DNA of 64,000 bases from a virus, in IMG/VR virus record IMGVR_UViG_3300036832_000548, positions 18,592 through 82,591 of that record; one strand, 5' to 3'. This document shows positions 18,368-56,995 of this stretch, in pieces (within the stretch, counting starts at the first letter, position 1; the number at the start of each line of letters is the position of its first letter). The notes under the pieces are model-generated. The model had not been told where the DNA came from. It did no database searches and saw nothing but the letters and a program-made list of their open reading frames with translations. The translations under genes were made by a program, and so were the position numbers.

Positions 18368-20151
18368 AATACGAGCCGCCGCTCACCAGCTCTGATCCGA
18401 ATGCGCCGTATATCAACGCGCAGGAGGGAAAGGGCATACATGGCTCGGTTCCAACGGCGGCGACCGTCGAAAATCCGCTGCGAGAGATTACGAGTCTGAT
18501 CACGAACTCGGAACAGACGCCTGACGATGGTGACTTGATGCAGGTCACTCGCGGTGTCCGCGACGGACGATTGAACTTTCGCGTGGATCAAGGAACACCC
18601 GATGCACTTGTTGTCGCGCAACTGTCGCCGCCTATTACAGATTATGAGGCTGGCCTTGAAGTTCGTGTATTGGTGGCCCACAGCGCAAGCGGAACTGTGC
18701 CGGTTACAATTCAGATTGGCAATCTTGCGACGGCGGGTGTCGTAAAATTAGACGGCACTGATTTGAAGGCCAACGATTTGTTGGCCGGACAGATTGCAGA
18801 TTTGGTTTATGATGGTGTTAATTTTCAGGTCCAGAACCTTGGCATTGCCGATCAAGCTGGTTCTGGCAACATTGATCGATATGAAATTACGATCCCCTAC
18901 GTGCATGACACTGGTACTATCAATCATTTGATTGGTTTGTACGTTCCAAGTTTGCCCAATATAAATGAAGGGAGAACCGTTGAAATCAAACTGGCAAACA
19001 ATACGACTGGGCCAGTTGATTTCAAGCCCAACAATTTCCCAGTCTATCCAGTGCGTCATCCTGACGGTACTGACCTGTCCGCAGGCGACGGCGTCATCAA
19101 CCAGATTTTGCTTCTCGTTTGGGACGGCGGGCAGTGGCAGTTAATCAGCAGCCGCGCGGACCCGACTGCACTTATTGTAAGAACGCCAAAGCGATCGCTG
19201 CAGTTTCAGGACCCTAGCGCTGGATGGTGGGGAACCTACACGTCCTTCCCATTTATGATGCGCACGCCCAAGGCCGCTGGCAACAGCAGCCTATGGACGT
19301 TTAGTACGTTCATTCGTTGGCCGGTTTTGATCCCACGGCCTAATGTGGTTCCAGGCCATCAAACCGATCTTAGAGAGTTCGTCATATCCGCTGCCGACGC
19401 TACCGGACCTGCTACTGGTGGAGCTGGCGATGTGACCTGCCTGGAGTTTGAAGGCGCCGACATCGACACCTGTCTATCGACCTTTTGGGACAATACTAAC
19501 GTCCCAAAAAGCGGTTACGGCGACTCCACTACGCCTGCAACGCATAACGGTGTTTTTGCGTGGGGCTTATTCAAAGACACAAACTGGCATCATCTAATGT
19601 GGCGGGGAGACTCGATCAGCGCTCATCAAACTGAAGTGTGGATCGATGGCATTCTGGTAAATGCTGGTTCTGTGACTACTCCAAGCACGATGAATGCAGC
19701 ACGGTTGCACGCTCTCGGCACCGAAACTGGCCCGGATAATCCCGCTAACACGACTCCCACTCCTGTTGCGTTCCAACCATCAGTCTATGGCTGTCGTGCT
19801 CGCATGGCCGAGGTTGTCATGGTTGATGGGCAGTGGCTCGATTGGAGCGTCTTCGCCTATAACATCGGCGGCATAATGGTCCCGAAAGTGCTTAACATAC
19901 CGGCGATGAATTTCGGAGTGAACGGCTATTATTTGAACTGGTCGAATGCCACTGCCATGACAGAAACAACTTTAGGCTCCGACTACAGCGGCAAAGGCAA
20001 TAATTGGACGCCGGTCAACTTCACGGCTGCGCATCTGCATTTGGACTATCCCGGTAATCCTGACTCTACCGAGACCTTCGGAACCTTTACCAATGGCGGC
20101 ACATGGCCAACCGGCCTACCGCCAGGATGGCGCACGATTTCAGGACCGTGA
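18364..20151 (+). CDS. Tail fibre 1 (LamG/concanavalin-like C-terminus)
   Basis: Follows gp48; WTFSTF, NWHHL, VWIDG, FGVNGYYLNW..LGSDYSGKGNNWT. Confidence 0.8.
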   Translation: MKYEPPLTSSDPNAPYINAQEGKGIHGSVPTAATVENPLREITSLITNSEQTPDDGDLMQVTRGVRDGRLNFRVDQGTPDALVVAQLSPPITDYEAGLEVRVLVAHSASGTVPVTIQIGNLATAGVVKLDGTDLKANDLLAGQIADLVYDGVNFQVQNLGIADQAGSGNIDRYEITIPYVHDTGTINHLIGLYVPSLPNINEGRTVEIKLANNTTGPVDFKPNNFPVYPVRHPDGTDLSAGDGVINQILLLVWDGGQWQLISSRADPTALIVRTPKRSLQFQDPSAGWWGTYTSFPFMMRTPKAAGNSSLWTFSTFIRWPVLIPRPNVVPGHQTDLREFVISAADATGPATGGAGDVTCLEFEGADIDTCLSTFWDNTNVPKSGYGDSTTPATHNGVFAWGLFKDTNWHHLMWRGDSISAHQTEVWIDGILVNAGSVTTPSTMNAARLHALGTETGPDNPANTTPTPVAFQPSVYGCRARMAEVVMVDGQWLDWSVFAYNIGGIMVPKVLNIPAMNFGVNGYYLNWSNATAMTETTLGSDYSGKGNNWTPVNFTAAHLHLDYPGNPDSTETFGTFTNGGTWPTGLPPGWRTISGP

Positions 20152-43476: not shown

Positions 43477-43494
43477 ATGGGGAGAGAGACGTAT

Positions 43495-43598
43495 CGTCTC
43501 GGCCAAGGCGCTCTTGATACCCATGTCCCGGATGCCGAGACGGGCCGCCATCGGCCACAAGGGGAATGATGCCCACCTGCTTGATGCCGGTGGCGGCC
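43495..43598 (+). ncRNA. Orphan TIGR-like guide doublet (2 dual-spacer stem-loop units)
   Basis: CGTCTCGGC-CA-N9-TGATACCCA-N9-T-GCCGAGACG then GGCCGCCATCGGC-CA-N9-TGATGCCCA-N9-T-GCCGGTGGCGGCC. Confidence 0.8.
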
Positions 43599-43942: not shown

Positions 43943-45136
43943 ATGGATAAGATCGATACCAAGGGCGCCCGCGAGAAGCTCCCCGCACGCGGGCGCGCAT
44001 ACTTCCTAAACACTGTCGCCAGTGGCATCACGCTGGGCTATCGCCGCCTGCCGGCTGGCCCTGGCTCCTGGCTCATTCGTAAGGCCGACGGCAAGGGCGG
44101 GGCCGTCCTCGTCACCTTCGCCAAGGCGGACGACCTGGTGCCAGCCGACGGCAAAACCATCCTCGACTTTGATCAAGCCCTCTTGCGAGCCCGCGAGGTT
44201 GCGGTCGACCTCATGAGCGACGTTGGCCCGCTGTCTATCGACAGGGCACTCACCGACTTTGCCAACGATCTGGCTGGCCGCGATTCGAACCCCGATAATG
44301 CCCGCCGCGTTCGCAAGCATTTGTCCTCGACTATGCTTGCCAAGCCCGTGGGCGCGCTCACCGCGCGCGAGCTTAAGCGATGGCGTGACGATCTCCTGAA
44401 GAAGATGACGCGGCCGACGGCCGTACGAACAATCAAGATGTTCCGCGCCGCGCTTAATCTCGCTGCCGATCTCGATAGCAAAATCACCAACCGCAATGAC
44501 TGGCGGATCGGCCTTAAGACGCGAGACGACTATCGGCCGGTTGATCGGGTACTTGAGGATGATCAGGTGCTACAGCTGATCGACGCGGCCTATGCGTTCG
44601 ACTATCAGTACGGCTTGCTGCTTGAGGTGTTGGCGTTCACCGGAACGCGCACCAAGCAGGCGACGCGCCTGATGGTCAGCGATCTTGATATCGCTGACAA
44701 GGACAAGCCGCGCCTGATGATGCCCGTGAGCCGCAAAGGCAAGTATCGCAAGACCGAGGTCAATCGGTCGATCCCGATTCCTGTCGATCTCGCTGGCAGG
44801 CTGCGTGCAGCTGCTGGCACTCGGCCGCGCAATACAGCGTTACTAGTCGACGGCAAGGGCAACCCGTGGAAACCGGCCGGCAACGAGATACGCAGGATGT
44901 GGAAGCGCGTCGCCGAGCAAGGCGGAATCAAAGAAACCATGTACGCCCTGCGGCACTCGTTCATCACGCGCAGTCTTAAGGCTGGCATTCCGCCAAGCGT
45001 GCTGGCGAACAGCGTCGACACATCGGTGGCAATGATCGAGAAAACCTATGGGCGCTTCGTCGCCAATCATGCGGACGACATCATGCGTCGTGCCCTGCTG
45101 CCATCAAGCAAGAGGATCCTTCGGATTGTGCCGTAG
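43943..45136 (+). CDS. int: Tyrosine recombinase/integrase
   Basis: Arm-binding N-terminus; TGTR, YALRHS, EKTYG catalytic motifs. Confidence 0.9.
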   Translation: MDKIDTKGAREKLPARGRAYFLNTVASGITLGYRRLPAGPGSWLIRKADGKGGAVLVTFAKADDLVPADGKTILDFDQALLRAREVAVDLMSDVGPLSIDRALTDFANDLAGRDSNPDNARRVRKHLSSTMLAKPVGALTARELKRWRDDLLKKMTRPTAVRTIKMFRAALNLAADLDSKITNRNDWRIGLKTRDDYRPVDRVLEDDQVLQLIDAAYAFDYQYGLLLEVLAFTGTRTKQATRLMVSDLDIADKDKPRLMMPVSRKGKYRKTEVNRSIPIPVDLAGRLRAAAGTRPRNTALLVDGKGNPWKPAGNEIRRMWKRVAEQGGIKETMYALRHSFITRSLKAGIPPSVLANSVDTSVAMIEKTYGRFVANHADDIMRRALLPSSKRILRIVP

Positions 45137-48427: not shown

Positions 48428-49045
48428 CTATTCGGATGCAGTATTTTTGTCCGTTTTGAGTGGGATCATCGGCGGATCGATATTCTCAAGCGCTTCAGCA
48501 ACAAGCCGGTCGCTCAGGTTCATCCGCGCCGTCAGATCCTTGATCGTATCGGTGACTTGCGTGCCGATCTTCGATGACATCTCGACCTCACGGAACGCCT
48601 CCGCGCCTTTCTGCCGAATGAGCCGCGCGGTATCGATGACTGTCTTGAGCACGGTTTGCGCTTGGTCGTGATACTCGCGGCCCATCTGCTCCAGTGTTTG
48701 CGCGCATTGTTCGTAGCCGATCACGACGGCATGCGCGGCGATGGCGGCACTGCGGGACACGTCAGGCGCGTGCGTAACGTAGTCAGGCAGCGGCCCCAGC
48801 ACCTTAGTGGCATTGTCCTGCCGCTGCTCAGGCGGCGCGTAATCGGCTGGGACCGGGACGTGTGGATCATCGAAGGTTGGACCTTTGATCCGCTCAGTCA
48901 CCATTCTTGGCGCGCGCTTTCCTGCCGCATTGACCTCAGCTTCAAGCGCCGCAGCAACGGCGGCAAACCCTTTCTCTTCCGGCGCTGCGTTCGGCAACAG
49001 TGCTTTCAAAGGGCTCTTCCCACGCACCACTGATGTGTCAGTCAT
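48428..49045 (-). CDS. Hypothetical protein
   Basis: AGGAG RBS; coiled-coil C-terminus. Confidence 0.65.
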   Translation of the reverse strand: MTDTSVVRGKSPLKALLPNAAPEEKGFAAVAAALEAEVNAAGKRAPRMVTERIKGPTFDDPHVPVPADYAPPEQRQDNATKVLGPLPDYVTHAPDVSRSAAIAAHAVVIGYEQCAQTLEQMGREYHDQAQTVLKTVIDTARLIRQKGAEAFREVEMSSKIGTQVTDTIKDLTARMNLSDRLVAEALENIDPPMIPLKTDKNTASE

Positions 49046-49222
49046 TTCGATCTCACTCCTTTGGTTGATCTTTGCAGGTTCCGAGGCGTATCAAGCGACC
49101 CTACCCACCACAGGTCGTCGCGCCGATTGGCTTCCGCCCACACAACGGCATCGTGTTCGCTCTGGAACGGCCCCAGATAGCTGAACCCGTCCTGCGGATT
49201 GCCGATGATAATGATGCAGATC

Positions 49223-50344
49223 TTAGGAACGCCCATCGGTTCCCTCAGGATGCGCTTGCTGCTCGTCCCAGCCTGCGCGCCACTCAAGGGCTTCGCGCGC
49301 CCGTGTTGGATCTCGATACTCGATCGGGGTTGCTTTGCGCTGCATGCCCTTGGCTTGGTCAGCGCGACCGCGTTCGCGCGCAATCACCAGCAAATCTGGG
49401 GCGGTCGCCTGTTGGGGTTCTACTTTCGTTTCGGATTTTGCAGCCGTTTGCTGCGGTTCCTGATTCGTTTCCGTGTTCGAATCATCGGAGTGCTGCTCGC
49501 TTGGCGGCGATTCCGGTTCTGTCAAGTGGTCGACGATGGTTCGGTCAGCGTGGGCTTGGTCGTGCGCTTCCTGCACGGTGTCTGCTGGTGGACCGGCGAA
49601 ATGATCGAGCGTCGCGCCGCGGGCGGTCTCACTGCGAGCGCGGGACTGGGCGGTCGTCTCGCCCTCTTCATCTTCGTACATCTCCTCATCTTTGCGGATC
49701 AGATCATCGAGGTCAGACGACATGGGCAGAAGCCGCGACAGGACCCGGATCGCGGTCTTCATCTCCATTTCTTCCGTCCACATTTTCCAAGGCGCGTCCT
49801 CGCGCGAGGCGCGGCTCATGTTGCGGCGCTTGGCAATCTCACTAGGCGATAGTGGCGCGATAAAAACCCCGCCGTCCTTGGTCCCGGCTGCGGCGTAGAC
49901 AAGACGCTTCTTCTTGTCGGTGTGATCGTCGCCCGGAATATGTTTGAAATGCGGGCCGTTCTCGTCAGTCCAGTGTTCCCAATGGTCGCCATCGTAAACG
50001 ATATCCGTCGTCACCCATTTAAATTGCCCGCTATTGCGGAATTTTTTGAGCAGGCCTTGGTACATCGGCAGGTATTGGACCTTGTTCTTAAATGGCACCA
50101 ACGCGGCCTCGCGACCGTCAGGCAGCAAACCGTCCTGGGCACAACGCAGTGCGGAGTTGAACAGCGAGCCGCGGTCACAGGTGAGCAGGTCGTTATTGAG
50201 CTGCACGGCGGTCAGCACAACGCGGAAGAACCGTTCGGCTGGCATGTGCTTCGGGAGCGCATGTTGAAATTGCACACTGCGATCGTTGAGTTGATCGCGC
50301 AGGACCACCATCGGGTGCGCGGGTTTGTTGGCTTGATCGTTCAT
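49223..50344 (-). CDS. recT: RecT-family single-strand annealing protein
   Basis: ALPKHM..ERF.RV..SL..CAQDGLLPDGREAALVPF..MYQGLLK..PW...EEM..KT.IR.L. Confidence 0.92.
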   Translation of the reverse strand: MNDQANKPAHPMVVLRDQLNDRSVQFQHALPKHMPAERFFRVVLTAVQLNNDLLTCDRGSLFNSALRCAQDGLLPDGREAALVPFKNKVQYLPMYQGLLKKFRNSGQFKWVTTDIVYDGDHWEHWTDENGPHFKHIPGDDHTDKKKRLVYAAAGTKDGGVFIAPLSPSEIAKRRNMSRASREDAPWKMWTEEMEMKTAIRVLSRLLPMSSDLDDLIRKDEEMYEDEEGETTAQSRARSETARGATLDHFAGPPADTVQEAHDQAHADRTIVDHLTEPESPPSEQHSDDSNTETNQEPQQTAAKSETKVEPQQATAPDLLVIARERGRADQAKGMQRKATPIEYRDPTRAREALEWRAGWDEQQAHPEGTDGRS

Positions 50345-50368
50345 TCGTTTTTCTCCTTTTGATTAGGT

Positions 50369-51038
50369 GCCGCCGAGGGCAGTCGAGCGTCGGGCATCAA
50401 GGCCTCGCAGGCCCTCGGCGGCGATCTCGGCACCGATTTCCTGGGCATCATAGGACGTTTGGCCGAGATTTCTTTTTGGTGCCGCCGAGGGCAACTTGAA
50501 CTTGGGCATCATGGGTGACATGGCCCTCGGCGGCTTGCTCGGCGTGCAGTTTTTGGGAACCCACTAATTTCTGGCCAAGCAATTTCTTGGAGTTGGTGCC
50601 GCCGCGGGCAACCCGAAGGGGGGGATCATTCGGGGCATGGCCCGCAGCGGCGGTCTCGGCAGGGGATGCATGGGCATCACGAAGTTCGTGGCCGAGATTT
50701 TTGCGCTTGCGTTTTTTGGGGCCGCCGACGGCGCTTGCGATTTGGGGATCAACCGAGCAATGGCCATCGGCAGCGACCTCGGCACCCATGCCATGGGCAT
50801 CAAGAACTACATGGCCGAGATCATTGGTGCCGCCGAGGGCAGAGGAATCCTGGGCATCATGCGCTGCTTGGCCATCGGCGGCGATCTCGGCAAAGCGTCG
50901 CTGGGCATCATGGATCCGTTGGCCGAGACCATTCGAATAGATGCCGCCGGCATGGCTCCTCTGGGCATCAGCCGCATGCTGGCCGACGGCGATCTCGGCA
51001 GCGCCATTTTGGGCATCATTGCTCATGTGGCCGAGATC
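50369..51038 (-). ncRNA. TIGR-like stem-loop array A (6 doublets, 12 dual-spacer units)
   Basis: Repeated GATCTCGGC-CA-N9-TGATGCCCA-N9-T-GCCGAGATC / GCCGCCGAGGGC-CA-N9-TGATGCCCA-N9-T-GCCCTCGGCGGC with unique spacers. Confidence 0.88.
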
Positions 51039-51974
51039 ATTCGTGGCTTGATCGACCCACTGTTCCCACAGGTCCACCAAGAATTGTTTGAAGGCGATCC
51101 GCAATCCGTCCTGGCGGCGATGACCGGGCGTCCATTCGGGATGCGATATCTCAGTGCGTATTCGGCGCGCGGCATAGACCTCGCCATAGCGTCCGTTGGG
51201 ATGACCTTCATCGGCCCCGGCCTTCGCTGCCGATATCCACTGCTTGTTCACGAGCCACAAGGCGATCGTGTACATCGTGGCGTATCGCTCACCCGAAAAC
51301 GGATTCGCGATCCATTCCTCCTTATCCAACTTACGCGGCCGCCACGTTTCCCGTTTCCAAGTCGATCCGGCGTGGCCATCATACGGTGCAAAGCCGAGAC
51401 GCTTCCAAAGCTTCTCCGGGTTCGCGTAGTTATCGAGCGGGCCCGCCTCCGCAACGATCAGGGCAAGGCCGAGGATGCCCGCGCCGGGGATCGACTCAAC
51501 CCACGGTGCAACGGGCAACTGCGCCGCGAGTTCCTCTATTCCAGCCGTTGAGTCGTCTCGCACTTCATCCATTGGCCCACGCGCGATGTCAGTCTTCTGC
51601 ACAATCGTGAGCAGATCGTGGGGCAAGTCCGTTTGAACAATCTCGCCGCTGCCGTTGGCGGCCTTCTTGTACACCGCGCGCGCCTCCTTGATCATCGCGG
51701 CAACCTTCTTGTTGTATTCCGCGCGAATGGCTTCCGACTCAGTCGGCTTCCAATCTGTAAAGTTGCGCCGGATATAGGACTCAAGAGCGCGGTCGATCTT
51801 TTGTTGAACTTTGATCGCGAACTTGCGCCGTCGCGCCAGCGTCACGATGTTCTTCACCAGCTCGTCGCGAGCACGAATTTGCAGCACCAGCGAAGGCAAG
51901 CCAATGGCGGAATTGCGCGCATCAATCAAAGCTTGAGCGCGGCGAGTGCGGTCGGCATTTGTTTGCTGTGTCAT
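50448..51974 (-). CDS. tasA: IS110/Nop-domain RNA-binding protein without nuclease domain (TasA-like); C-terminal about 195 aa read through array A
   Basis: Coiled coil, then LPVAPWVESIPGAGILGLALIVAEAG..YANPEKLWKRLGFAP..YGEVY..GHRRQDGLRIAFKQFLVDLW; no N-terminal DEDD/RuvC; AAGGGA RBS. Confidence 0.8.
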   Translation of the reverse strand: MTQQTNADRTRRAQALIDARNSAIGLPSLVLQIRARDELVKNIVTLARRRKFAIKVQQKIDRALESYIRRNFTDWKPTESEAIRAEYNKKVAAMIKEARAVYKKAANGSGEIVQTDLPHDLLTIVQKTDIARGPMDEVRDDSTAGIEELAAQLPVAPWVESIPGAGILGLALIVAEAGPLDNYANPEKLWKRLGFAPYDGHAGSTWKRETWRPRKLDKEEWIANPFSGERYATMYTIALWLVNKQWISAAKAGADEGHPNGRYGEVYAARRIRTEISHPEWTPGHRRQDGLRIAFKQFLVDLWEQWVDQATNDLGHMSNDAQNGAAEIAVGQHAADAQRSHAGGIYSNGLGQRIHDAQRRFAEIAADGQAAHDAQDSSALGGTNDLGHVVLDAHGMGAEVAADGHCSVDPQIASAVGGPKKRKRKNLGHELRDAHASPAETAAAGHAPNDPPLRVARGGTNSKKLLGQKLVGSQKLHAEQAAEGHVTHDAQVQVALGGTKKKSRPNVL

Positions 51975-51998
51975 ATTGTGTGTCCCTTGTTGTTAGGT

Positions 51999-52100
51999 GC
52001 CGCCGAGGACATTCGACGTATGGGTATCACCCGAGCAACGGCCCTCGGCGGCGATCTCGGCGATCATACAATGGGCATCACTGGGGCTGTAGCCGAGATC
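51999..52100 (-). ncRNA. TIGR-like array B (1 doublet)
   Basis: Same repeat architecture, intergenic upstream of tas. Confidence 0.85.
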
Positions 52101-52102
52101 AT

Positions 52103-52795
52103 TTAGTGTCCTTCGATATACTTTTGCAGGCTCGCCACCGTCGCAACGACTGCGGTGTTCAACGCAGCCGGGGCTTGCTCGCGAGCTTCCCGATCAAACT
52201 GCTCGAGCACATTTGCTGGGACGATATCGCGGACCCGCGCATCCGTATTTGGCACGCGCGCGTAGCTGCGGATCTTGCACATGAGCAGCGTGTCGGCAGT
52301 CTCCTGCAGTGTGCTCAACACGGTCGAACCGACGACCGCAATGCGCTCCTCAATCGCGGCGTCCAGCTCCCGCCAGTGCAGGTCGCCAACCGGCGCGCCG
52401 TTGATCCTGCGGCGGTCATAGATGAGGCCAACGCTGCGCATCATCGCGGTTCGGTTGATCGCCTTGTCGCGGGCTGTGGGTGATTTGGTGCCGCCGCTGG
52501 CGTTTCTGCTTTGGGCATCAAGTCCACGCTGGCCAGCGGCAGCGGTCTTGGCACGCAGCGTGTGGGCATCAGCATGTACGCGGCCAAGATCATTCGAAAT
52601 GCGTTTGAGATAATCCAGCGCGAGCCCGCCGAGTAATTCCGGGCGGCGTTGAATTTTCTTGACGAAGCCGGTCAAGACTTTCGTCGGGTCGTTTTTGTTG
52701 TCATTCAACAAATTGACGGCAGCGACCCGCAGCTCGTTAGCGACGGTGTCGAGGCCGGCTTTCTTCAGAGCAGCTCCGATAGATGTGTCAGTCAT
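52103..52795 (-). CDS. Hypothetical helical protein containing an in-frame guide doublet
   Basis: GGAG RBS before ATG 52795; open across array C. Confidence 0.7.
   Translation of the reverse strand: MTDTSIGAALKKAGLDTVANELRVAAVNLLNDNKNDPTKVLTGFVKKIQRRPELLGGLALDYLKRISNDLGRVHADAHTLRAKTAAAGQRGLDAQSRNASGGTKSPTARDKAINRTAMMRSVGLIYDRRRINGAPVGDLHWRELDAAIEERIAVVGSTVLSTLQETADTLLMCKIRSYARVPNTDARVRDIVPANVLEQFDREAREQAPAALNTAVVATVASLQKYIEGH
52490..52591 (-). ncRNA. TIGR-like array C (1 intragenic doublet)
   Basis: Same architecture with compensatory stem changes. Confidence 0.8.
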
Positions 52796-52818
52796 TTTGT
52801 GTTCTCCGTTCAAAAGGT

Positions 52819-53033
52819 GCCGCTGAGGGCACCAGTCCCGTAGGCATCAACAAACAGATGGCCCGCAGCGGCGATCTCGGCAAAACTTGGTTGGGCATCA
52901 TGGATGCGATAGCCGAGATCATTTGTGTGGGTGCCGCCGAGGGCATTGCGTCGTTGGGCATCAGGCGTTCCTGGGCCCCCGGCGGCGGTCTCGGCACCGA
53001 TCCTCTGGGCATCAACGCGCGGATGGCCGAGAT
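52819..53033 (-). ncRNA. TIGR-like array D (2 doublets)
   Basis: Same repeat architecture. Confidence 0.87.
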
Positions 53034-53038
53034 TTGTG

Positions 53039-53734
53039 TCATATCGTTACCCTGAAGATTTCGCTGAATGGCGGGCGGTGCGCCGCGTCAGATAGCTCGT
53101 TGCTGACGACTAGCACGCGATATCGAAAGCCGCGGCTTTGATTGATTACGCTGGTTCGCGCGAGATAGTTTTTCTGGAGCTGTTGCAGCCAAAAACTGGC
53201 GTGTTGCAGTTCCCCGTAAATCTTCTGCCGTCGGGCTGCATGATTGATCCGACGAAGAACGGACCCCTCATTGAACACAACGATGAAATCGCTGGCTGCA
53301 ACGTCGCGCGCCACGATCCGCATCGCGCCAACGCCATGCCCGGTGTAGCCGCAGGGATCTGATAGCCATAGGACGTAATCGTACCCACCGGCGCGTACGA
53401 CATCGACGACATCGGAATGCGTCTCGGCAATGAGGGCACTCGGAAACCGTTTGCGCAGCAAAAGCCGTTGCCTCCGACTCGCATCGCACAGGCAAACGTC
53501 CGCGCTCACGGCGAAGGCGATGTTGGTGACAATCTGCGGCGTTGGCGTCGACACAACGCCGTCATGCAAAACGCCGATACCATCACCAGCATTGGCATCG
53601 ATCAAAAGAAGTTTGTCGTGCAGATGAGCGGTCCTGACTTGCGCTTCAACGATCTTGCTCAACAACGAGTGTTTGATCCACGACCCCTCGCTGCGGCCCG
53701 CATTAGCGCGTTCGTTGGTCGAGGCGTGGGTCAT
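53039..53734 (-). CDS. SAM-dependent methyltransferase-fold protein (TcmP/GMT-like)
   Basis: SWIKHSLL..LIDANAGDG..LSDPCG, similar to the KH/IDxxAGxG/DPxG motifs of TcmP-like proteins. Confidence 0.55.
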   Translation of the reverse strand: MTHASTNERANAGRSEGSWIKHSLLSKIVEAQVRTAHLHDKLLLIDANAGDGIGVLHDGVVSTPTPQIVTNIAFAVSADVCLCDASRRQRLLLRKRFPSALIAETHSDVVDVVRAGGYDYVLWLSDPCGYTGHGVGAMRIVARDVAASDFIVVFNEGSVLRRINHAARRQKIYGELQHASFWLQQLQKNYLARTSVINQSRGFRYRVLVVSNELSDAAHRPPFSEIFRVTI

Positions 53735-53743
53735 CGTGTAGGT

Positions 53744-54406
53744 GCCGCCGCAGGCAGAGGCCGAGTGGGCATCATCGTCGTTGTGGCCCGCGGCGGCGAT
53801 CTCGGCGTTCCGCGTTTGGGCATCAAGCGATCGTTGGCCGAGAATTGTTGAAAGGCTGCCGCCGAGGGCATGACGATTTTGGGCATCAACGAACGACTGG
53901 CCATCGGCGGCGATCTCGGCAAGCGCCTTCTGGGCATCATCTGGCCTGTGGCCGAGATCATTCGAATGGGGGCCGCCGAGGGCAAGCACAGGATGGGCAT
54001 CACGGGTCGCGTGGCCCCCGACGGCGATCTCGGCACCCGAGTCATGGGCATCAAGTGGTCATGGGCCGAGATTATAGGTGCCGCCGAGGGCAACGATCCA
54101 TTGGGCATCACGCTGGCAACGGCCCTCGGCGGCGATCTCGGCATTCCATCATTGGACAGCAAGTCGTCGTTGGCCGAGAAGATTTTAGGTGCCGCCGAGG
54201 GCGCACCTCCCATGGGCATCAAGGACGGCGTGGCCCGCGGCGGCGATCTCGGCAACGGGTGGCTGGGCATCAGCCGTCTACTGGCCGAGATCATTCTGAT
54301 AGATGCCGCCGAGGGCATGAGCTGCTTGGGCATCAGCCAGCTTCTGGTCCTCGACGGCGATCTCGGCAGAGCTCGTATGGGCATCACTGGTGGATTGGCC
54401 GAGATC
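53744..54406 (-). ncRNA. TIGR-like array E (6 doublets, 12 units)
   Basis: Same repeat architecture; starts at the stop codon of the YqaJ gene. Confidence 0.9.
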
Positions 54407-55325
54407 ATTTGGTTGCTTCTTTACGTTCGTGAATTCGGAGAACGCGGACCTCGCGTGGGAGGACCGTATAGCCGGAAAAATTCGAGGTTTTGTAGGTGAC
54501 TTTCCATCCGTTAACGCCGGAGACTTGGGCCGCGTCACCCAATTTGTATTTTATCTGAGCCTCGATCTCGTCTTTGCGTTGGTCGAGCGAAGCGATCCGT
54601 TGCATCAGGGCGGCGCGTTCCGCGAGGATTTCCGGCAGCTCGTTGTCGCCAGACATGTCGACCATCTTATCGGTGGCTTCGCGTGGACTGATCAACTTGA
54701 TCAGCTCAGCATCCTTGCCGAAATCGGGCGCCGGCTCGTGACCGATCCGCATTAGCTCCCAAAAATTCTGGGCGGCTGTCTTGATCCGCTCCTCGGCACC
54801 GGCGTGGCGTGGCAATTCCCTGATGCAGACATCGAGATCATAGTTGTAAACCACGGCGGCCACCCCGAAGGCGGCGTCGGCCAGCAGCATCTCGGTGAGC
54901 AGCTGCAGCTCGATCCACAATGGGGTGATATTTCCGTTGTCCCAATCGCGCTCAAAGATGTGCGGATAGGCGGTTTTAGTTTGCAGGATGCCGAGGCCGC
55001 GCGGATCGCCGTGGATAAAGAAATCTGGCGTAGCGCCCAACTGCAGCTCAGGGGCACGGAAATATGTCTGGCATTTCTCAATGATCCAATCGTCGTGTTC
55101 CTCTCCGACACGCTGGGCAACGACGTTTTCGAGCAGGCGCCCGCGGCGGATCGGTTTCGTTTCCTCGAATTCGAACTCCATCCCATTGTGCTGATAGTAA
55201 AGCTTGAGCGCGGTGACATACGGGTGCAGGCCGAACAGCGCCGCCACCACGGAGGCGGTGATGTCCGGCTTGCGCAGCTCCAGCCACTGCGGGCGACTCA
55301 GGATTGGGATGCGTTCGACGATCAT
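54405..55325 (-). CDS. YqaJ/lambda-exonuclease family protein
   Basis: WLELRKPDITAS..RGRLLE..GATPDF..LQTKT..QL. Confidence 0.9.
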   Translation of the reverse strand: MIVERIPILSRPQWLELRKPDITASVVAALFGLHPYVTALKLYYQHNGMEFEFEETKPIRRGRLLENVVAQRVGEEHDDWIIEKCQTYFRAPELQLGATPDFFIHGDPRGLGILQTKTAYPHIFERDWDNGNITPLWIELQLLTEMLLADAAFGVAAVVYNYDLDVCIRELPRHAGAEERIKTAAQNFWELMRIGHEPAPDFGKDAELIKLISPREATDKMVDMSGDNELPEILAERAALMQRIASLDQRKDEIEAQIKYKLGDAAQVSGVNGWKVTYKTSNFSGYTVLPREVRVLRIHERKEATK

Positions 55326-55372
55326 GGGTGTTCCGAATCGAATAGGGCAATCTTGCCTCTGAGCCGCGCGGC

Positions 55373-55389
55373 GTCAACAAGGAGTTGAC
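55373..55389. promoter_or_regulatory. Palindromic operator-like site in the divergent early control region
   Basis: GTCAAC-AAGGA-GTTGAC; contains TTGAC -35-like hexamers on both strands; another TTGACA at about 55432. Confidence 0.5.
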
Positions 55390-55493
55390 TCTTTCCCCGC
55401 TGTCCTTTCTCCGGGGGTGGCAACCCTAGTTTGACAACGTTAGGGCTACTCGGTTAATTTTTTCTTGCTTGGTAACCCTTGGTCGATATTCAC

Positions 55494-55763
55494 ATGGCAA
55501 AAGAGAGACTTGACGCAGCCATTCTGGCGCTGCGGGAAGAGAATTGGCTACCTAGAATCGCGCAGCGACTCAATTTGACCCGGCAGGCGACCTCGAAATG
55601 GCGCCGCGTTCCGGCAGATCGTGTGCGCGAGGTCGCCAAGATCACGGATTATCCCCTGGCATTTTTACGTCCTGATCTTTACGAGGACATGCCATCCAAG
55701 CCGCCCAAGCTGGCGAAGCCGAAAGCTCGCCGCCGCAATCATCGTGCTGTTGCGCATGCTTGA
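55494..55763 (+). CDS. Cro/YdaS-like HTH regulator
   Basis: IAQRLNLTRQATSKWRRVPADRV..LRPDLY. Confidence 0.85.
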   Translation: MAKERLDAAILALREENWLPRIAQRLNLTRQATSKWRRVPADRVREVAKITDYPLAFLRPDLYEDMPSKPPKLAKPKARRRNHRAVAHA

Positions 55764-56359
55764 GGGGTATTATGGGCCAGCCATTCGACGGTCTTCCGCG
55801 CGCCCATTTCCGCGCAATCCTGGCTGACCCGCCGTGGAACTTTGAGACCTATAGCGAGGCTGGTCGCGATCGTTCTCCCAATTATCCGCTGATGACGGCG
55901 CAGGGCTTGCGCGATCTGCCGGTCAAAGACCTCGCGGCGCCTGATTGCGTGCTGTTCATGTGGGTTACATGGCCAATGCTCGAGCAATCGCTGGCGCTGA
56001 TTCGCGCGTGGGGGTTCACCTACAAGACGTGCGGGTTTGACTGGATGAAGGCGCACGCGGGCCAGATCGATATGTTCCGCGACGACGCGGATGGCCAGGT
56101 TGGGCTTGGCTACTGGACGCGCAGCAACAGCGAGCCGTGCCTGTTGGCAACGCGCGGCAAGCCCAGACGGGTCAACGCTGATGTCCGCATGGGCATCATC
56201 GAGCCGCGGCGCGAGCACAGCCGCAAGCCTTATTGCATCTATGACCGCATCGAGCGGCTCGTCCAAGGACCATATATTGAATTATTTGCTCGCTGGCAGC
56301 GTCCGGGCTGGACCGCTTGGGGCAATGAGACTGACCGATTCAAGGAGGCTGCGGAGTGA
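55760..56359 (+). CDS. MT-A70 family adenine methyltransferase
   Basis: ILADPPW; LFMWVT; AWGFTYKT; GLGYWTRSNSEPCL; REHSRKP; IELFAR. Confidence 0.92.
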   Translation: MRGIMGQPFDGLPRAHFRAILADPPWNFETYSEAGRDRSPNYPLMTAQGLRDLPVKDLAAPDCVLFMWVTWPMLEQSLALIRAWGFTYKTCGFDWMKAHAGQIDMFRDDADGQVGLGYWTRSNSEPCLLATRGKPRRVNADVRMGIIEPRREHSRKPYCIYDRIERLVQGPYIELFARWQRPGWTAWGNETDRFKEAAE

Positions 56360-56995
56360 ATGTCCTCGATTTATTCAGCGGGATCGGCGGCTTCTCACTC
56401 GGACTCGAACGGGCCGGAATGCGAACTACCGCTTTTTGCGAGTCTGATGCGTTCTGCCGGCGCGTCCTCGCCAAGCACTGGCCCGACATCCTCTGCTACG
56501 ACGATGTCACAACTCTCACTGCCGCTCGACTTAGCGCCGATGGCATTGACAGCATTGATCTCATCTGCGGCGGATTTCCCTGCCAAGACATCTCCGTTGC
56601 CGGCAAAGGCGCAGGACTTGCTGGCGAGCGATCGGGCCTATGGCTCGAGTTCGCGCGAATTGTTGGCGAGCTACGACCCCGTTACGTCATCGTGGAGAAC
56701 GTCGCAGCTCTGCTTGGACGGGGACTATCAACAATTCTCGGAGACCTGGCCGCGCTCGGGTTTGATGCGGAATGTGGGTCGAGTGGTTGATGGGCCTGCC
56801 GCTCGAGTGGACCGTCGTAAGCGGCTCATCGCGCTTGGAAACGGACTCGTCCCGCAAATCCCGGAAATCATTGGACGCGCCATAATGGATGCTGAGCGCC
56901 CATACGACTTGCACGATGACATCAACAAGTCGCTGAAGGTTTGTTACGACGAGATCAAGGCGCGGCAGGCTGCGGGCGGTCCCGGCTGGCCATGA
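56356..56995 (+). pseudogene. C5-cytosine methyltransferase split over two frames with an apparent internal deletion
   Basis: Motifs I (DLFSGIGG), IV (GFPCQD) and VI (ENV) in 56356-56790; motif X (LGNGLVPQI) in the +1 frame; motif VIII and TRD absent. Confidence 0.7.

Follow-up and report, generated by a model that had tools for sequence, protein, structure and literature searches.

Guide units inside the reading frame of a phage tasA gene, in a lineage whose spacers appear filtered against stop codons in one sense frame

TIGR-Tas systems are compact and bind DNA under the guidance of RNA. Stem-loop guide RNAs (tigRNAs) located inside tas coding sequence are already in print: Xu et al. (2026, bioRxiv 10.64898/2026.09.09.750476) describe intragenic arrays that typically lie in disordered regions, raise a possible link between guide maturation and Tas translation, and report processed guides from within the BlTasA gene of Bifidobacterium longum. 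In E. coli, guides of other stem-loop arrays have been shown to be excised at the linkers (Faure 2025, PMC12045711; Xu 2026). Here we describe a tasA gene in the IMG/VR virus record IMGVR_UViG_3300036832_000548, whose reading frame runs on past the end of the protein core and through most of an adjoining guide array. The window analysed, a single stretch of 64,000 nucleotides (nt) at positions 18,592 to 82,591, is the last 64 kb of this 82,591-base record, which is rated complete by CheckV and carries an integrase gene. We favour, at a probability of roughly 55%, the reading that the open reading frame (ORF) is real and translated and is kept open by selection, with the protein's tail mostly a passenger; judging from the sequence, the intragenic layout of the guides is probably kept by selection as well.

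The gene and its tail array comprise the following features.

50448-51974, minus strand: tasA ORF, 508 amino acids, with its ATG start at 51974.
51045..51974, minus strand: tasA core, residues 1-310, with N-terminal long helices followed by a Nop-type RNA-binding domain.
50448..51044, minus strand: in-frame tail of tasA, residues 311-508 plus the stop, holding guide units T1-T10 and the first half of T11.
50481..51037, minus strand: guide units T1-T10, five type I/type II pairs in a single codon phase, assigned by layout, stem covariation and fold.
50424..50469, minus strand: guide unit T11, which supplies the tasA stop TGA at 50448-50450.
50369..50422, minus strand: guide unit T12, 3' of the tasA stop; an AAGGAG ribosome-binding site and the start of recT come next.

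The start position of tasA is common to its homologues. An earlier reading made from the sequence alone (hereafter the sequence-only reading) had placed the end of the domain near DLWEQW and noted that no stop follows, and this is borne out: the motif occupies residues 301-306 and ends at about 51057, no stop comes next, and the frame stays open for another 198 codons (594 nt; about 195 had been given). The read-through of guide units that it described also stands, but its count of 11 does not, as the ORF contains T1 to T10 whole and T11 up to the loop, that is, 10.5 of the 12 units of the tail array. The terminating TGA consists of box D of T11 (TG) and the first loop base, and it is met in frame because the T10-to-T11 spacing is 61 nt and breaks the phase; all remaining within-array spacings of the window (26 of 27) are multiples of three (3n). 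The Tas fold itself ends near residue 315, and the 5' arm of the first hairpin encodes the last turn of its final helix.

The units follow the layout stem-CCA-N9-TG-ATGC-CCA-N9-TG-stem and alternate between two stem types, type I with arms ATCTCGG and CCGAGAT and type II with arms GCCGCCGnGGG and CCCtCGGCGGC. A type I unit directly abuts a type II unit, and linkers of 7 to 22 nt separate the pairs. All 34 units that were aligned read CCA-N9-TG-N4-CCA-N9-TG with a few single-base departures, and so fall within the motif set that Xu et al. give in their methods (a pair of 8-12-nt spacers, each flanked by a CCA-like box C and by TG or CG as box D). The layout agrees with the published stem-loop type (Xu et al. 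2026; Faure et al. 2025, PMC12045711), for which the TIGRFinder methods specify spacers of 9 nt, with CCA as box C and TG as box D (Xu et al. 2026). A strict motif-plus-stem finder recovered 20 of the 32 minus-strand units, together with one likely false match at 53426. The palindromic stems are evident from covariation: 82.8% of cells are paired, compared with 26-58% when the partners are slid (14 pairs counted), nine of the 14 stem pairs vary on both sides, and the covariation score of 0.425 (0.152 in shuffles) was reached by none of 500 shuffles. Over the 701 nt of the tail region the folding energy is -314 kcal/mol (z = -5.0), and in T9 the boxes are degenerate while the stem is retained through compensating changes. 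The hairpins are real. CTT occurs at the stem base in three of the 34 units (A5, C1 and T9), most stems having TCTCGG or GCCGCCG there; CUU at this position is a processing mark that Xu et al. (2026) treat as frequent rather than defining. A scan of viral contigs with the core as a single protein found nothing; an alignment-based scan returned 24 related loci, in which the units lie nearly all on the tas strand. In the window, 32 units are on that strand, no more than 2.5 kb from tasA.

The protein gives few matches in direct family searches. Pfam returns only a sub-threshold PF02371 (Transposase_20, E 0.0013), PHROGs a 'transposase' family over residues 146-306 (E 1.3e-7), and all PHROGs matches are confined to residues 141-306. 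When a profile of 51 family members was compared with all Protein Data Bank (PDB) sequences, TasR 9mty (E 3.2e-4) and TasH chains (E 2.1e-3) were found; phmmer with the core alone against PDB sequences gave a chance match only (E 0.63). An AlphaFold2 model built on the 51-member alignment has a predicted local distance difference test score (pLDDT) above 90 over residues 1-315; in it, long N-terminal helices lead into a C-terminal domain that is also helical. With this model, Foldseek ranks 1-10 are all TasR or TasH chains (TasR 9mty, E 7.2e-4; TasH 9w02-9w04), at a template-modelling (TM) score of up to 0.63 on the target, and behind the Tas chains come the IS621 recombinase (8wt6 and 8wt9, ranks 12-13), Prp31 and Nop5/56/58. 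Foldseek, the family profile and AlphaFold2 thus all point to a Tas/Nop-type RNA-binding fold, and the labels 'Tas-like' and 'Nop-like' given from sequence were right, since the fold matches TasR 9mty and the TasH 9w0x entries and the profile finds the same ones. No HNH or RuvC nuclease domain was detected, residues 1-150 being modelled as helices only and Pfam giving only PF02371, which argues for TasA as distinct from TasH and TasR. By profile and predicted fold, the ORF product is the TasA of a stem-loop TIGR-Tas system.

Two other identities were considered and rejected. An IS110-family transposase is contradicted by the lack of PF01548 at E values up to 1 and by an N-terminus modelled as a coiled coil. 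A box C/D small nucleolar ribonucleoprotein (snoRNP) core protein does not fit the boxes, which are CCA/TG and not RUGAUGA/CUGA, and Nop5, Nop56 and Prp31 match with TM scores of at most 0.26; the snoRNP class is also defined by fibrillarin and L7Ae partners, for which no search was made.

Read as protein, the tail consists of five copies of DLGH...DAQ...AEIAA.GQ...DAQ...ALGG, each encoded by two guide units, and the repeat with Lys-rich linkers noted from the sequence alone is confirmed in that the distal linkers (PKKRKRKN, TNSKK and TKKKS) are rich in Lys and Arg. The conserved residues of the tail are simply what the stems and C/D boxes of the RNA give when translated. The 5' stem with box C gives LG(H/Q), and box D together with the loop and the second box C gives DA(Q/H); AEIAA comes from the type I 3' stem where it continues into the type II 5' stem, and A.GG from the type II 3' stem. 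The AlphaFold2 model gives pLDDT below 50 at residues 324-358 and 368-508, so that the tail is predicted to be an intrinsically disordered peptide.

Homologues bear directly on how the tail is maintained. A search with the core returned 251 proteins at E ≤ 0.001, of which 120 were listed. The eight best matches (P0003-P0010; 52-82% identity in the search listing, 89-100% query coverage) all lack a stop at the junction between core and tail and continue in the same frame, with a shared LGH...DAQ...AEIAA...GG pattern in which the spacer-encoded residues differ. The guide-encoded variable tail suggested by the sequence-only reading fits this comparison and the predicted disorder. At the DNA level we surveyed 57 non-redundant related loci, 55 of them with the tas stop inside the locus; the contig of P0003, the closest homologue at 82% identity, was absent from the 63 metagenome loci found. 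Of the 55 loci, 44 have guide units in a run directly behind tas, and the tas ORF holds at least one whole unit in 17, at least two in 11 and at least four in four, with a maximum of six, so that the ten whole units of the present ORF are the most observed at this level. Read-through therefore recurs without being universal, and in the nearest clade it is fixed. In some loci, for example L022, L044 and L056, tas is fused to its array in the other open frame and the tails are KP...P-rich; as other lineages use another open frame, the peptide pattern itself is not what is conserved.

Two further groups of tails were seen among the relatives. Many short-tailed homologues (L010, L014, L017, L038, L041, L043, L046, L052, L054 and others) end in ...AAE and a stop, which resembles the type II 5' stem read as codons (GCC GCC GAG), and their first hairpin may overlap the last tas codons. 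Four other loci (L061:1008-1695, L069, L089 and L094) have repetitive tas tails of 101-228 residues in which the unit finder recognised no CCA/TG units; these tails may hold arrays with other box motifs.

Spacing and spacer content across the lineage carry the favoured reading. In the window and the 24 related loci, 178 of the 279 spacings of up to 135 nt are 3n, with 65 at 3n+1 and 36 at 3n+2 (a count that retains near-duplicate loci). Where the two units of a pair are 49 or 52 nt apart, the linker spacing is mostly 62 or 65 nt, which makes the pair period 3n again. With the near-duplicate loci L014, L018, L023 and L026 dropped, 21 of 32 arrays of at least four units are fully open in a sense frame, compared with 8.7 expected from permutation within segments. 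We then used a leave-one-out test on 379 distinct units from 62 arrays, in which the frame was picked from the rest of the array only. In the chosen frame, 15 of 1,572 spacer triplets were stops (0.95%), compared with 118 of 3,734 (3.2%) in the other phases (P = 6e-7), made up of 58 of 1,628 for the other frame in which no TGA is built in and 60 of 2,106 for the third phase. The same test showed no effect for antisense stops (33 of 1,380 vs 77 of 2,834, P = 0.61) or for stops spelled backwards (P = 0.39). We conclude from these counts that spacers in this lineage appear to be filtered against stops in one sense frame, which would mean that the arrays are translated often enough to matter. One of the fully open arrays, of 23 units upstream of a related tas (L012:3001-4303), is stop-free over 1,303 nt in one sense frame, and its best antisense frame has eight stops.

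The alternative that survives best is neutral read-through, in which the array merely abuts the end of tasA, the ORF runs to a chance stop or frameshift, and the tail is tolerated junk under no selection. We consider it rather unlikely, with the following results on either side. The hairpin consensus is stop-free in two of its three frames, and when bases were shuffled within each spacer and each linker (mean 2.3 stops), this tail stayed open in 8.2% of 20,000 permutations (P = 0.082), so that its open frame, taken by itself, is no more than chance could give. Neutrality would also suit a disordered tail and an ORF that terminates at a frameshifting 61-nt spacing, but it does not readily account for spacings that otherwise preserve the frame with compensating lengths. 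Nor is read-through the rule in the wider family: only 17 of the 44 loci with a post-tas run have a whole unit in the ORF, most relatives stop before the array, tails range from 8 to 228 residues after W303, and among the 120 homologues listed 97 are shorter than 340 amino acids and 23 are at least that long. The closest homologues, with tails of about 3.5 to 10 units, vary in length approximately as a stop rate of about 0.23 per unit predicts, but the junction is open in all eight of them and the linkers inside the ORF are Lys/Arg-rich, neither of which neutrality anticipates. Antisense frames are stop-poor as well (17 arrays open vs 11.3 expected), so part of the effect is due to base composition; against this, the avoidance in spacers is specific to sense and frame in the leave-one-out test, and its controls are not significant. 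Restricted to the window, that test (0 of 76 vs 3 of 176) has no power because too few units are usable, and the family-wide counts may be inflated by near-identical spacers, since exact duplicates alone were removed.

Charged tails help other RNA-binding proteins to bind nucleic acid, oligomerise or localise, and the disordered, partly basic, spacer-dependent tail could likewise be a working part of TasA. The linkers give this alternative its best footing: Lys and Arg make up 14 of the 40 residues in linkers inside tas ORFs, compared with 8-13%, in any frame, in 126 linkers outside them, although the sample within ORFs is small (10 linkers, 6 sources). KSKKR-like stretches also recur in homologue tails, in both frames, and the junction is conserved in the closest clade. 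On the other hand, the isoelectric point is 7.2 for the tail and 9.4 for the core, so the tail has no net basic charge; every conserved residue maps to an RNA element; pLDDT is below 50; and frame, length and even presence of the tail differ among lineages. Only the linkers look tuned at the protein level, by their Lys and Arg content, and we judge a working tail distinctly unlikely.

The sequence-only reading had named a sequencing error hiding a stop after the domain as what would refute it. A Logan contig of 6,958 nt (depth 15), made by a different assembler, agrees with the record over 50300-52100 with 0 differing letters and 0 gaps; it comes from the sole public run holding this DNA, a DNA run that is probably the record's own source, and so checks the assembly without adding an independent sample. 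That a sequencing or assembly error in this single metagenome record conceals a stop, or that the array sits on a separate transcript and the true product has about 310 amino acids, is very improbable given the identical second assembly, the open junction shared by eight independent homologues, and the lack of any promoter-like site inside or after the core in a scan of 49000-56500 (weak evidence, as the scan was limited to sigma-70-type sites).

The favoured reading, a translated ORF held open by selection, suggests the following mechanism. The guide arrays would be under selection for translatability in one sense frame, acting through 3n phasing and through avoidance of stops in spacers, and if arrays are kept translatable in this way the tail would be translated mainly as a side effect. 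The arrangement probably serves to bring ribosomes across long structured arrays on a polycistronic message, so that recT downstream is still reached; ribosomes translating the tail would pass 0.6 kb of hairpins and come within some 100 nt of where recT begins. Within a single RNA molecule, hairpin folding and guide processing would compete with translation. A tas mRNA that lost guides from its tail by excision would have no stop codon and would give less Tas, the output of which would thus drop as Tas and guide processing rise. Such autoregulation, the second alternative of the sequence-only reading, is plausible on this analysis: if guides are excised from the tas transcript, cutting of the mRNA and autoregulation follow logically. 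A stronger version, which we entertain as possible but only tentatively, holds that the arrays are obligately translated, that each spacer doubles as a 9-nt guide and a run of stop-free codons, that TasA has a hypervariable tail which alters with every change of spacer, and that guide maturation throttles Tas synthesis because guides cut from the tail leave a stop-less tas message.

In this soil phage the gene lies in an operon-like row on the minus strand: a YqaJ/RecE-like exonuclease, two unassigned genes, tasA and recT. The neighbouring features are as follows.

49223..50344, minus strand: RecT-family annealing protein gene, next in the operon (PF03837, E 2e-31; phrog_148, E 6e-59).
51998..52104, minus strand: array D, two guide units immediately 5' of the tasA start, assigned by unit layout.
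52103..52795, minus strand: gene of unknown family upstream of tasA, holding one in-frame guide pair.
52818..53038, minus strand: array B, four guide units, covered by ORF 52788-53042.
53743..54410, minus strand: array A, 12 guide units, covered by ORF 53731-54408.
54405..55325, minus strand: YqaJ/RecE-like exonuclease gene (PF09588, E 3.5e-10; phrog_434, E 1.6e-44).

The 32 minus-strand units thus fall within 50369-54410, with 12 in the tail array, two in array D, two in the in-gene pair, four in array B and 12 in array A. Besides the absence of promoter-like sites, the scan of 49000-56500 for sigma-70-type sites found no minus-strand terminator-like site, and one transcript for the whole row is plausible from the sequence.

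The gene at 52103..52795 has no match in Pfam or PHROG searches; the guide pair at about 52489-52595 (minus strand) lies in frame inside it, and the changes in its stems are compensating. Arrays A and B are wholly spanned by ORFs 53731-54408 and 52788-53042, which use the second open frame, and each of these ORFs overlaps the stop of the preceding gene as ATGA. The array A ORF overlaps both the exonuclease stop and the start of the following gene in this way, and the array B ORF terminates five bases within the following gene. The ATGA overlaps were considered as proof of translational coupling and dropped for this purpose, since the ATGA that opens a type I unit belongs to the unit consensus: the upstream overlap is weak evidence by itself, and an upstream gene in the third frame would end at the consensus ATGA anyway. 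A further type I/type II pair lies on the plus strand at 43491-43598, the strand opposite to that of all other units, about 350 nt upstream of the integrase gene at 43943-45136 (PF00589, E 1.2e-10).

Possible targets were sought for the guides by joining spacer A to the reverse complement of spacer B. For 627 distinct spacer pairs searched against 1.15 Mb, this arrangement gave six one-mismatch matches, from three independent guides, compared with 0 to 2 for the other arrangement and for each of four controls. One such guide is unit A6 of array A (54079-54134, minus strand), which matches the tas gene of a related phage at 17 of 18 bases (L042:1116-1133). The matched site encodes the conserved WLVNAQWI motif, at which the window's own tasA differs (WLVNKQWIS). 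The adjacent site, at a distance of 8 nt, is matched by an unrelated guide from locus L039, with one mismatch in tas of L040 and L046-L048 (L040:4727-4744, L046:1964-1981) and with two mismatches in L052 and L072. There are thus hints in the sequence that some guides are aimed at the tas genes of rival phages, and the 17/18 match of the array A guide is only a hint that the guides are in use. The tail guides T1-T11 had no match at up to two mismatches in 0.49 Mb of related loci. Within the whole 82.6-kb genome, joined spacers A and B in two strand arrangements gave eight matches at up to three mismatches, one of them at two, which is about chance level and offers no convincing self-target.

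The locus is an extreme and clean case of guides inside the reading frame of their own effector, and the family-wide avoidance of stops in spacers, on the sense strand only, suggests that translation through guide arrays is selected. If true, this limits which spacers can exist and ties guide maturation to translation of the effector and of neighbouring genes. It also carries a warning for annotation, as long repeat-like tails on Tas proteins can be guide arrays read as protein.

The closest described counterparts are the intragenic tigRNAs of Xu et al. (2026), which share with this locus units that lie within the tas ORF, including its 3' end, keep the frame and coincide with disordered segments. 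In BlTasA the embedded segment maps to the wedge loop, whereas here 10.5 units form a 198-residue C-terminal tail. A full-text literature search for tigRNA inside genes or reading frames matched that preprint alone, and a term search of its text found no statement on 3n phasing, spacer stop avoidance or basic linkers, although its supplementary tables or TIGRSafari may cover the clade. The layout is thus already known; sense-specific stop avoidance, which we did not find in the text of either TIGR paper, is the added observation.

Subarrays split by other sequence, as seen here, also occur with the TasA of the Peromyscus leucopus gut contig (Faure et al. 2025, Science, PMC12045711), where processing is reported at linkers. 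That array is described as lying between genes, as three subarrays; the present one has two alternating stem types, is spread through a recombination operon and lies partly inside ORFs. The IS110-family bridge-RNA recombinases (8wt6, 8wt9) share the RNA-binding C-terminal domain, as indicated by the weak PF02371 match and Foldseek ranks 12-13, but no RuvC-like N-terminal domain is detected here, and the guides are arrayed dual-spacer hairpins in place of one bridge RNA. Outside prokaryotes, SNORD86 offers a parallel: this box C/D-type guide is carried by the pre-mRNA of NOP56, the Nop-domain protein that binds it, and serves as an in-cis sensor of how much NOP56 is present (PMC11028025). SNORD86 is an intronic RNA of eukaryotes whose effect depends on alternative splicing and nonsense-mediated decay, whereas the units described here lie in a phage coding frame and the feedback would run through guide excision; should the arrays prove to be obligately translated, the tasA tail would be a prokaryotic counterpart of that sensor.

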